DNA from: a virus
Lineage: Duplodnaviria > Heunggongvirae > Uroviricota > Caudoviricetes
Direction: 5' to 3' (one strand)
DNA length: 37,210 nucleotides
Virus record (IMG/VR): IMGVR_UViG_2713896798_000012
Positions 22,698 to 25,732 of this stretch are shown in pieces. Each line of letters begins with the position of its first letter. The first letter of the stretch is position 1. A program made the position numbers and the translations under genes. The notes beneath the pieces are model-generated. The model was not told where the DNA came from. It saw only the letters and a list, made by a program, of their open reading frames with translations, and ran no database searches.

Positions 22698-22886
22698 GTG
22701 AGCATGAGCGAGCAAATATTCAGAGAGATTAAGCCACGGTTTTATCGCAAGGTAAGGGTGGTTTATCAGGACGAAAACAAGACATGTGCATACGCCATTC
22801 ATAATGGTCGGTGGTCAGTGTTCGACACCAAAAACTTCGAGAAGAACTTCGAGAGGATTAAGGGTGATGAGGAAACTAACATTTGA
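22698..22886 (+). CDS. Hypothetical protein
   Basis: 62-aa ORF immediately upstream of ninB. Confidence 0.35.
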   Translation: MSMSEQIFREIKPRFYRKVRVVYQDENKTCAYAIHNGRWSVFDTKNFEKNFERIKGDEETNI

Positions 22887-23140
22887 ACTAAGAAGCCCCA
22901 TCCATCAGCAGAACGCCATTCAAGCTATCCAGCAAATTCTTCCAGACCCAACCAAACCAATCGTAGTAACCATTCAGGAACGCAACCGCAGCATTCGGCA
23001 AAATGCACGCCTTCACGCGATGCTATCTGAAATAAGTAAGAAGGCTACATATCACGGAAAAGCAAGAAATATTGAGTTTTGGAAGGGGTTATTCGTTTCT
23101 GGTTGGCAGATTGCAACCAACCAGCACCCTGAGATTATAT
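22867..23140 (+). pseudogene. ninB: ninB (NinB/Orf family) 5' portion, interrupted by an IS66-family element
   Basis: MRKLTFELRSPIHQQNAIQAIQQILPDPTKPIVVTIQERNRS… matches lambda NinB N-terminus; reading frame runs into the IS terminal repeat at 23141. Confidence 0.8.
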
Positions 23141-23211
23141 GTAAGCGTACAGCCTGAACCGTCTGGTCAGAATCTGACGAATTAGACAAAGTGGTGTCCA
23201 CCAAATAAGTA

Positions 23212-23613
23212 GTGGGAACCAAAGTGTCAGATATGCAGAAAAATGTGACTCCCGGCAGGCGAAAAGGCAGCCCTAATTATCCTCCCGAATTTAAACAGCA
23301 GCTCGTTGCTGCCTCCTGTGAACCCGGGATATCCATCTCAAAACTTGCTCTTGAAAATGGCATTAACGCCAATCTGTTGTTCAAATGGCGACAACAATGG
23401 CGCGAGGGAAAGCTGCTATTACCTTCTTCAGAGAGCCCCCAGCTACTTCCTGTGACTCTCGATGCAGCTGCCGAACAGCCAGAATCGCTCGCAGAGGACC
23501 CGAAAACCCTCAGTATCAGCTGTGAGGTAACGTTCCGGCACGGGACGCTCCGCTTCAATGGCAATGTCAGCGAAAAGCTCCTGACTCTGCTGATACAGGA
23601 ACTGAAGCGATGA
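23212..23613 (+). CDS. tnpA: IS66-family TnpA
   Basis: Track ORF from GTG; an in-frame ATG at 23233 is an alternative start. Confidence 0.75.
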   Translation: MGTKVSDMQKNVTPGRRKGSPNYPPEFKQQLVAASCEPGISISKLALENGINANLLFKWRQQWREGKLLLPSSESPQLLPVTLDAAAEQPESLAEDPKTLSISCEVTFRHGTLRFNGNVSEKLLTLLIQELKR

Positions 23614-23957
23614 TCCCGTTACCTTCCGGGACAAAAATTTGGCTGGTTGCCGGTATCACCGATATGAGAAATGGCTTCAACGGCCTGGCGGCAAAGGTGC
23701 AGACGACGCTGAAAGACGATCCGATGTCAGGTCACGTTTTTATCTTCCGTGGGCGTAATGGCAGTCAGGTAAAGCTCCTCTGGTCTACCGGCGATGGACT
23801 GTGTCTGCTGACCAAACGGCTGGAGCGCGGCCGCTTCGCCTGGCCGTCAGCCCGGGATGGCAAAGTGTTCCTCACACCGGCACAGCTGGCGATGCTCCTT
23901 GAAGGTATCGACTGGCGGCAGCCTAAAAGACTGCTTACGTCCCTGACTATGTTGTAA
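23610..23957 (+). CDS. tnpB: IS66-family TnpB
   Basis: 115 aa, paralogous to copy A/B TnpB (…LVAGITDMRNGFNGL…). Confidence 0.85.
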   Translation: MIPLPSGTKIWLVAGITDMRNGFNGLAAKVQTTLKDDPMSGHVFIFRGRNGSQVKLLWSTGDGLCLLTKRLERGRFAWPSARDGKVFLTPAQLAMLLEGIDWRQPKRLLTSLTML

Positions 23958-24005
23958 GCCTCTTTATCCTGGTCGACGCTGAATGAGCCTGGTAATATAC
24001 CCGGT

Positions 24006-25544
24006 ATGAGCAGCTCACTTCCTGACGATATCAATGCACTGAAACGTCTCCTTGCCGAACAGGAGGCGCTGAACCGTGCCCTGCTGGAAAAGCTGAACGA
24101 GCGTGAACGCGAAATAGACCATCTGCAGGCACAGCTGGATAAGCTGCGCCGGATGAACTTCGGCAGCCGCTCCGAAAAAGTCTCCCGTCGTATCGCACAG
24201 ATGGAAGCTGACCTGAAGGCACTTCAGAAAGAAAGTGATACCCTTACCGGTCGGGTTGACGACCCGGCCGTGCAGCGCCCGCTGCGTCAAACCCGCACCC
24301 GCAAACCGTTCCCCGAATCACTCCCCCGCGATGAAAAACGGCTGCTGCCGGCAGCGTCATGCTGCCCGGAATGTGGAGGCTCACTGAGCTATCTGGGTGA
24401 GGATGCCGCCGAACAGCTGGAGTTGATGCGCAGCGTCTTCCGGGTTATCCGGACTGTACGTGAAAAGCATGCCTGTACTCAGTGCGATGCCATCGTGCAG
24501 GCCCTCGCGCCTTCACGGCCCATCGAGCGGGGTATCGCAGGACCGGGGCTGCTGGCCCGCGTGCTGATCTCAAAGTATGCAGAGCACACCCCGCTGTACC
24601 GCCAGTCTGAAATGTACGGCCGCCAGGGCGTGGAGCTGAGTCGTTCACTGCTGTCGGGCTGGGTGGATGCATGCTGCCGGCTACTGTCACCGCTGGAAGA
24701 AGCGCTTCAGGACTATGTGCTGACTGACGGTAAGCTCCATGCTGATGACACGCCTGTCCCGGTGCTGTTGCCAGGCAATAAGAAAACGAAGACCGGGCGG
24801 TTATGGACCTACGTTCGTGACGACCGTAACGCCGGGTCAACGCTGGCGCCGGCGGTGTGGTTCGCTTACAGCCCGGACAGAAAAGGCATCCATCCGCAGA
24901 CCCATCTTGCGGGGTTCAGTGGTGTACTGCAGGCGGATGCATACGCCGGGTTCAACGAGCTGTACCGGGATGGCCGGATAACGGAAGCCGCCTGTTGGGC
25001 TCACGCCCGCCGTAAAATCCACGATGTGCACGTTCGCACCCCGTCAGCCCTGACGGAGGAAGCGCTGAAACGGATCGGCGAACTGTACGCCATCGAGGCA
25101 GAGATAAGGGGAATGACGGCGGAGCAGCGCCTTGCCGAACGTCAGTTGAAAACGAAACCGCTGCTGAAATCCCTGGAAAGCTGGCTGCGTGAAAAGATGA
25201 AAACCCTGTCGCGACACTCAGAACTGGCGAAAGCGTTCGCATACGCCCTGAACCAGTGGCCGGCGCTGACGTACTATGCAGATGATGGCTGGGCTGAGGC
25301 GGACAATAACATCGCTGAAAATGCGTTGCGGATGGTCAGTCTGGGCCGCAAAAACTACCTGTTCTTCGGTTCGGATCATGGAGGAGAGCGGGGAGCGCTG
25401 CTGTACAGCCTGATCGGGACGTGCAAACTGAACGGAGTGGAGCCAGAAAGCTACCTCCGCTATGTCCTTGACGTCATAGCCGACTGGCCGATAAACCGGG
25501 TCGGCGAACTGCTCCCCTGGCGCGTAGCACTGCCGACTGAATAA
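24006..25544 (+). CDS. tnpC: IS66-family transposase TnpC
   Basis: 512 aa, paralogous to copy A/B TnpC. Confidence 0.9.
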
Positions 25545-25581
25545 CACATCCCCGTCAATACGGTTCTTGCTGCACGCTTAC

Positions 25582-25732
25582 GATTATATCAGGGTTAGAA
25601 GGTGAGCTAATAAACATCAGAGAGAGTACGGCGACTCTATCTGTAAAAAAAATATCCGAAATAATGGACTACATAGAAGCATATTGTGCCATGAACTCAA
25701 TTCATCTTAGCGAATGGAGGAATTATGATTGA
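25582..25732 (+). pseudogene. ninB: ninB 3' remnant downstream of the IS
   Basis: After removing the IS and one duplication copy the NinB frame continues (…EIISGLEGELINIRE…) to a TGA at 25730-25732. Confidence 0.55.

Follow-up and report, generated by a model that had tools for sequence, protein, structure and literature searches.

The virus record IMGVR_UViG_2713896798_000012 (Duplodnaviria; Heunggongvirae; Uroviricota; Caudoviricetes) is a stretch of 37,210 bp, here called the window, and represents a lambdoid prophage of the Shiga toxin (Stx) phage type with its integrase at the right end. In the early region of this prophage, ninB, the gene for the recombination protein NinB, is split by an insertion sequence (IS) of the IS66 family that is flanked by two copies of the same 8-bp sequence. 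The insertion had been noticed in an original prediction made from the nucleotide sequence, in which it was described as a second and distinct IS66-family element disrupting ninB. The element is a complete copy of ISEc22, and the gene that it interrupts exists in uninterrupted form in other Escherichia coli genomes.

The interrupted ninB locus

The locus contains the following features.

22867 to 23140, plus strand: 5′ fragment of ninB, from the ATG at 22867, with codons 1 to 91 and the first base of codon 92
23133 to 23140, no strand assigned: left copy of the target-site duplication, GATTATAT, directly abutting the left end of the element
23141 to 25581, plus strand: complete ISEc22 (IS66 family), 2441 bp long and oriented like ninB
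23141 to 23162, plus strand: left terminal inverted repeat, GTAAGCGTACAGCCTGAACCGT, matching the reverse complement of the right end at 19 of 22 positions
23212 to 23613, plus strand: tnpA, 133 residues with a GTG start, encoding an accessory helix-turn-helix protein (Pfam HTH_Tnp_1, E=1.4e-12)
23610 to 23957, plus strand: tnpB (IS66 Orf2), 115 residues (Pfam TnpB_IS66, E=1.6e-38; NCBIfam IS66_TnpB above cutoff)
24006 to 25544, plus strand: tnpC, encoding the DDE transposase, 512 residues (Pfam DDE_Tnp_IS66, E=1.2e-106, profile positions 1-283 of 284)
25560 to 25581, minus strand: right terminal inverted repeat, reverse complement GTAAGCGTGCAGCAAGAACCGT
25582 to 25589, no strand assigned: right copy of the target-site duplication, GATTATAT, directly abutting the right end of the element
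25590 to 25732, plus strand: 3′ fragment of ninB, starting with the remaining bases of codon 92 and running to the stop codon (TGA, 25730-25732), separated from the start of the gene

The boundaries proposed in the original prediction, with the ninB frame running into the IS end at 23141 and the element ending at 25581, are all correct, and the direct repeats adjoin these ends exactly. The 5′ fragment encodes the first 91 residues of WP_001229012.1 without a difference. As it now stands, the frame reads into the element and yields a product of 96 amino acids, in which the 91 native residues are followed by five that are encoded by the IS (...HPEII-CKRTA, with the stop codon at 23155-23157).

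What did ninB encode before it was interrupted? Removal of positions 23141-25589 in silico, that is, of the IS together with one copy of the repeat, gives an open reading frame (ORF) of 417 nt and 138 amino acids that ends at 25732, as had been claimed. The restored protein belongs to the NinB family: it matches the Pfam NinB profile PF05772 over positions 2-129 of 131 (E=2.5e-40; 137.8 bits against a cutoff of 23.8), and its residues 1-130 align to residues 1-126 of the lambda NinB/Orf structure 1PC6 (E=1.4e-31). It is also, residue for residue, the protein WP_001229012.1, named "recombination protein NinB", which is found in the O121 strain RM8352. At the level of DNA, the empty site was searched for as positions 22300-23140 joined to 25590-26400. 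This query of 1652 bp has an uninterrupted match of 100% in at least 14 complete genomes, in which the gene is annotated "recombination protein NinB" among the matches listed; they include O121:H19 strains, O157:H7 ECP19-798, and O111:H8 99.1145. A further 34 or so genomes carry the empty-site sequence at 98-100% coverage. Thus, ninB was an intact gene prior to the insertion. Its position, 3′ of the genes for replication protein O and a DnaB-type helicase, is that expected for a lambdoid ninR region, and in an O121 relative without the inversion described below, the genes downstream of ninB are dam, ninE, ant, ninG, ninH, and Q, in that order. In annotation, the two ORFs (22867-23157 and 25590-25732) are best treated as one pseudogene, ninB, with a complete ISEc22 between its halves.

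The element itself begins with GTAAGCGTACAG (IS end GTAAGCGT) at 23141 and finishes with CTGCACGCTTAC (...CGCTTAC) at 25581. Terminal inverted repeats in the IS66 family are reported to be about 20 bp long and to start with GTAAGCG (Han et al. 2001; ISfinder). Those found here start in this way, as do those of the ISEc8 and ISEc23 copies considered below. All three genes of the element are intact and lie on one strand, and the stop codon of tnpA overlaps the start codon of tnpB in the tetranucleotide ATGA at 23610-23613. TnpA scores 98 bits against the NCBIfam IS66 TnpA model NF047595 (cutoff 74), and a later start is chosen for its gene in some annotations made by the NCBI Prokaryotic Genome Annotation Pipeline (PGAP). 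TnpC reaches 463.6 bits with NCBIfam transpos_IS66 (cutoff 180), and also matches the Pfam families zf-IS66 (zinc finger), LZ_Tnp_IS66 (leucine zipper), and IS66_C.

The assignment to the IS66 family, made previously from the sequence, is borne out by these Pfam and NCBIfam matches, and comparison with catalogued members leads to ISEc22. When 5,426 complete E. coli genomes were searched by megablast with the 2441-bp element, there were matches of 100% over its full length, and the transposase of every listed case is annotated "IS66-like element ISEc22 family"; the name ISEc22 used here rests on this PGAP naming of the matching copies. All 2441 positions are identical in NZ_CP144930.1 and NZ_CP144926.1, and near-identical copies are present in more than 200 further records. 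According to the PGAP annotation, ISEc22 is common both in E. coli chromosomes and on plasmids. When ten further copies were retrieved with their flanks, TnpC showed no difference from the ISEc22 transposase WP_052933923.1 in two of them (L003 and L004) and a single difference from that of the other eight. The insert is not a new element: it is ISEc22, a catalogued IS, in complete form. It is probably still competent for transposition, as suggested by its intact ORFs and ends and by the many identical copies that exist elsewhere.

The target-site duplication and the age of the insertion

The sequence GATTATAT occurs only twice in the window when both strands are checked, and the two occurrences are those that abut the IS ends. 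Two fixed positions would share an exact 8-mer by chance with a probability of approximately 4^-8, or 1.5e-5 (about 1 in 65,000). The empty-site alleles, for example that of O121 RM8352, have a single copy of GATTATAT. All 1652 bp of the excised sequence exist elsewhere, without an interruption and with 100% identity, which shows that the repeat arose by duplication of the target site; a chance repeat was considered and rejected. The left junction consists of CCTGAGATTATAT joined to GTAAGCGTACAG, the right junction of CTGCACGCTTAC joined to GATTATATCAGGG, and the ninB::ISEc22 junction sequence is CACCCTGAGATTATATGTAAGCGTACAG.

The ten further copies of ISEc22 allow the target duplications to be compared. 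All have identical first and last bases. A perfect duplication of 8 bp is found at eight of the ten, one has a duplication of 9 bp, and one has none, and a target duplication of 8 bp has been reported for IS66 (PMC6778807). An 8-bp duplication is the usual footprint of ISEc22. The 9-bp duplication, AAACAATTA, belongs to the copy in NZ_CP144930.1 (L003), which lies inside a DUF3313 gene, and the copy without a duplication is on plasmid pL73-2 (L005), beside an IS5 element. Extended matches had hinted at site specificity of ISEc22, in the form of ATAT or GATT flanks, and this idea was dropped after no motif common to the ten sites was found.

Could the arrangement be an artefact of assembly, in which a repeated IS was misplaced into ninB? 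Assembly errors classically arise at repeats, E. coli genomes have many IS66-family copies (a median of 3 places per genome and a maximum of 32), and two further copies of this family are present within the window itself. However, a misjoin would not produce an exact 8-bp duplication at both termini with flanks that match the empty site perfectly, and the same signature is seen at eight of ten independent ISEc22 sites. Misassembly is for these reasons an extremely improbable explanation.

When did ISEc22 enter ninB? The interrupted locus was searched for with positions 22300-26400 as the query, a hit being counted when one place covered at least 80% of it. None of the 5,426 complete E. coli genomes and none of 50,697 phage records contained it at this coverage. 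Exact look-up in a large protein-to-contig index returned no record of the truncated NinB products, either of 96 amino acids from the ATG or of 123 amino acids from an upstream GTG, and the left junction (39 nt) has no exact match in the GTDB species-representative genomes, a negative of little weight because this set includes one genome per species. At the same time, the IS is 100% identical to other copies and its flanks are 100% identical to empty sites. Because of this identity, together with the absence from sampled genomes, the insertion is probably lineage-specific and recent. An old insertion is made unlikely by the same two observations, namely the zero divergence of IS and flanks and the absence from the genomes sampled. 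The junction could act as a strain- or lineage-specific marker.

The original prediction had drawn recency from the intact duplication, which was taken to indicate a recent insertion with no later recombination. The second half of this claim stands: an intact duplication shows that there has been no recombination between this copy and another ISEc22. It does not by itself date the insertion, and the support for recency comes instead from sequence identity and from the absence of the interrupted locus in the 5,426 genomes.

A different history would be the import of ninB::ISEc22, ready-made, by homologous recombination with another lambdoid phage, in which case the insertion might be older and have arisen elsewhere. 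Such an exchange is plausible in principle, given that lambdoid phages are highly mosaic and that the ninR region is 99-100% identical across many Stx prophages. On the other hand, ninB::ISEc22 is found in no other genome or phage record sampled, its truncated product is not on record, and there is no divergence between the IS and other copies, or between its flanks and the alleles with an empty site. This makes import a very unlikely origin.

The best explanation, with a probability of about 95%, is that ISEc22 transposed into codon 92 of ninB in a lambdoid E. coli prophage that resembles Stx phages and lacks stx, that this happened recently and in a single lineage, and that NinB function has most likely been lost as a result. 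In mechanistic terms, ISEc22, through the DDE transposase TnpC, would have moved into codon 92 of ninB (also called orf); staggered cleavage of the target followed by gap repair would have generated the 8-bp duplication GATTATAT, and NinB would have been cut after residue 91 of 138. Nothing contradictory to this explanation was found. The case for recency depends on the sequence identity and on the failure to find the insertion in the genomes sampled, draft genomes being covered by exact protein look-ups only.

How much of NinB is lost? The missing third of the protein aligns to lambda Orf from approximately residue 87 onwards (about 87-126), and the segment aligned to R103 is downstream of the insertion. 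In lambda Orf, DNA binding is lost with the substitution R103E and impaired by substitutions in the C-terminal helix, which has a share in this binding (PMC4118853). Because the lost part covers these DNA-binding segments, the truncated NinB is most likely inactive, and its function as a recombination mediator would have been lost with it. The orf (ninB) gene of lambda is non-essential, and its product substitutes for RecFOR in phage recombination. Since lambda can dispense with this gene, the loss of ninB is expected to be near neutral and of low cost to the prophage. The IS has the orientation of ninB and of the pR operon, with the HNH and dam genes downstream. A consensus scan of positions 22800-25800 for promoters and terminators found none on the plus strand, and fewer sites than in shuffled sequence.

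The surrounding prophage and its inverted block

Three features outside the element bear on the history of the region.

8024 to 10555, minus strand: copy A, an IS66-family element of the ISEc23 family, 2532 bp
25725 to 26327, plus strand: NUMOD4/HNH endonuclease gene of the homing-endonuclease type (Pfam NUMOD4 and HNH_3), overlapping the ninB stop codon
28152 to 30683, plus strand: copy B, an IS66-family element of the ISEc23 family, 100% identical to copy A and inverted relative to it

Copies A and B are 99.6-99.9% identical to elements annotated as ISEc23 family. Their relationship to the element in ninB is distant, with identities to ISEc22 of 61% at the nucleotide level, 34% for TnpA, 66% for TnpB, and 61% for TnpC, so that the element in ninB is indeed distinct from both, as had been proposed. 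The contrast that had been drawn between its intact duplication and the flanks of copies A and B also holds, for the 8-mers that flank these two copies have been exchanged as reverse complements: the outer 8-mer of copy A, ATAAATGG, is the reverse complement of the inner 8-mer of copy B, CCATTTAT, and the inner 8-mer of copy A, GTACTCCT, is the reverse complement of the outer 8-mer of copy B, AGGAGTAC. When the 8-mers are paired accordingly, two empty sites can be rebuilt. The first, in the spacer between the Ant and KilAC genes, is found uninterrupted over 1468 bp with 100% identity in many O157:H7 genomes; the second, in an ea22-like gene, is found uninterrupted over 1474 bp with 100% identity in strain 95NR1. 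In addition, an alignment to an O121 Stx2a prophage places positions 1-7578 of the window in reverse orientation and positions 17832-28050 in forward orientation. The swapping of 8-mers between the inverted copies, and the confirmation of both ancestral empty sites, show that the block at 10556-28151 (17.6 kb, the early region with ninB::ISEc22) is inverted relative to related Stx prophages. The inversion may have occurred by homologous recombination between two independent ISEc23 insertions, or it may have resulted from a single intramolecular replicative transposition.

The inverted block contains ea22, N, a gene for a cI-like repressor, O, the DnaB-type helicase gene, ninB, HNH, dam, and ant, while kilAC, ninG, Q, three tRNA genes (4920-5169), a gene for an esterase of 645 amino acids, and the lysis genes are on the left side. 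Judging from gene order, Q (5611-6084), the tRNAs, and the lysis genes would, after the inversion, lie on the same strand as N (14384-14767) and the pL operon and downstream of them, beyond copy A. The pR/nin operon now runs through copy B toward the integrase end, and Q and the lysis genes are no longer downstream of it.

Under a broader interpretation, the insertion in ninB would be one stage of IS66-driven remodelling of the prophage instead of an isolated neutral event; three insertions (ninB, the ea22-like gene, and the spacer between ant and kilAC) and one inversion would belong to this process, which could alter or disable induction. Along similar lines, the area of ninB might be a recurrent landing zone for selfish elements, of which the HNH gene, the ISEc8 of phage 1717, and ISEc22 would be examples. 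Both ideas are speculative, and on balance rather unlikely. If it did take place, the remodelling removed a recombination function, took Q and the lysis genes out of the pR operon, and placed them downstream of the pL/N operon.

Although of the Stx type, the prophage is stx-negative. At 4515-4880, in the stretch that separates the esterase gene from the tRNA genes, 366 unrelated bases replace the interval of approximately 1.65 kb that bears stx2A and stx2B in the O121 Stx2a relative, and the two sequences are collinear on both sides.

The HNH gene next to ninB is an older insertion, approximately 10 codons before the original ninB stop codon, because in phages without this gene a DNA search finds that homology to the window resumes at 26297, under the ninB and dam annotations. 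It gave NinB a new C-terminus (...SEWRNYD), and the old tail of ninB (...KARWGDRAA) now sits on the HNH protein. Further upstream, the gene for the DnaB-type replicative helicase (19395-21788) is an ORF of 797 amino acids, with matches to LAGLIDADG/Hom_end and Hint between the N- and C-terminal helicase domains. This arrangement indicates a probable intein within the helicase ORF. In the O121 relative, the helicase gene is annotated by PGAP as two fragments.

Comparison with known insertions and with lambda NinB

Copies of ISEc22 elsewhere are identical or near-identical in sequence to the copy in ninB, with the ends GTAAGCGTACAG...CTGCACGCTTAC, three genes, and an 8-bp duplication as the norm. 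They differ from it in their insertion site only, and none of them is in ninB among the sampled genomes. The ISEc23-family copies A and B resemble ISEc22 in that they belong to the IS66 family, have three genes and GTAAGCGT ends, and had 8-bp duplications at their original sites. They differ in their length of 2532 bp and in that their duplications have been divided between the two copies through the inversion.

The restored protein can be compared with lambda NinB/Orf (1PC6), to which its first 41 or so residues are nearly identical; both genes also belong to a ninR region and follow the replication genes. By contrast, the middle and the C-terminus have diverged, the last nine or so codons of the lambda type are at the end of the HNH gene, and the gene in the window is interrupted.

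A parallel is provided by ISEc8 in the Stx2-converting phage 1717 and in O157:H7 prophages, an IS66-family element of 2442 bp with the same architecture and 88.5% nucleotide identity to the ISEc22 of the window. In phage 1717 (L001, NC_011357.1, 1507-3948), ISEc8 is flanked by an 8-bp duplication, GGTTATCG, and lies in the ninR neighbourhood between helicase and HNH endonuclease genes. It represents a second, independent insertion of the IS66 family in the neighbourhood of ninB. However, it is a different IS species and occupies an intergenic site approximately 2 kb upstream of ninB, and the ninB gene of phage 1717 is another allele, which ISEc8 does not split.

Insertions of IS elements into the ninR region have been recorded before in E. 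coli prophages, ISEc8 in phage 1717 being one example, and a large number of such prophages serve as IS reservoirs (PMC4118853). Compared with these, the interruption of ninB by ISEc22 is an ordinary event, in which a known IS showing its normal behaviour occupies a site that had not previously been sampled. Its significance beyond annotation is small. Taken with the inversion and with copies A and B, it illustrates how the IS66 family contributes to the erosion and rearrangement of Stx-type prophages, and IS-driven erosion and rearrangement of prophages is already well described for E. coli.

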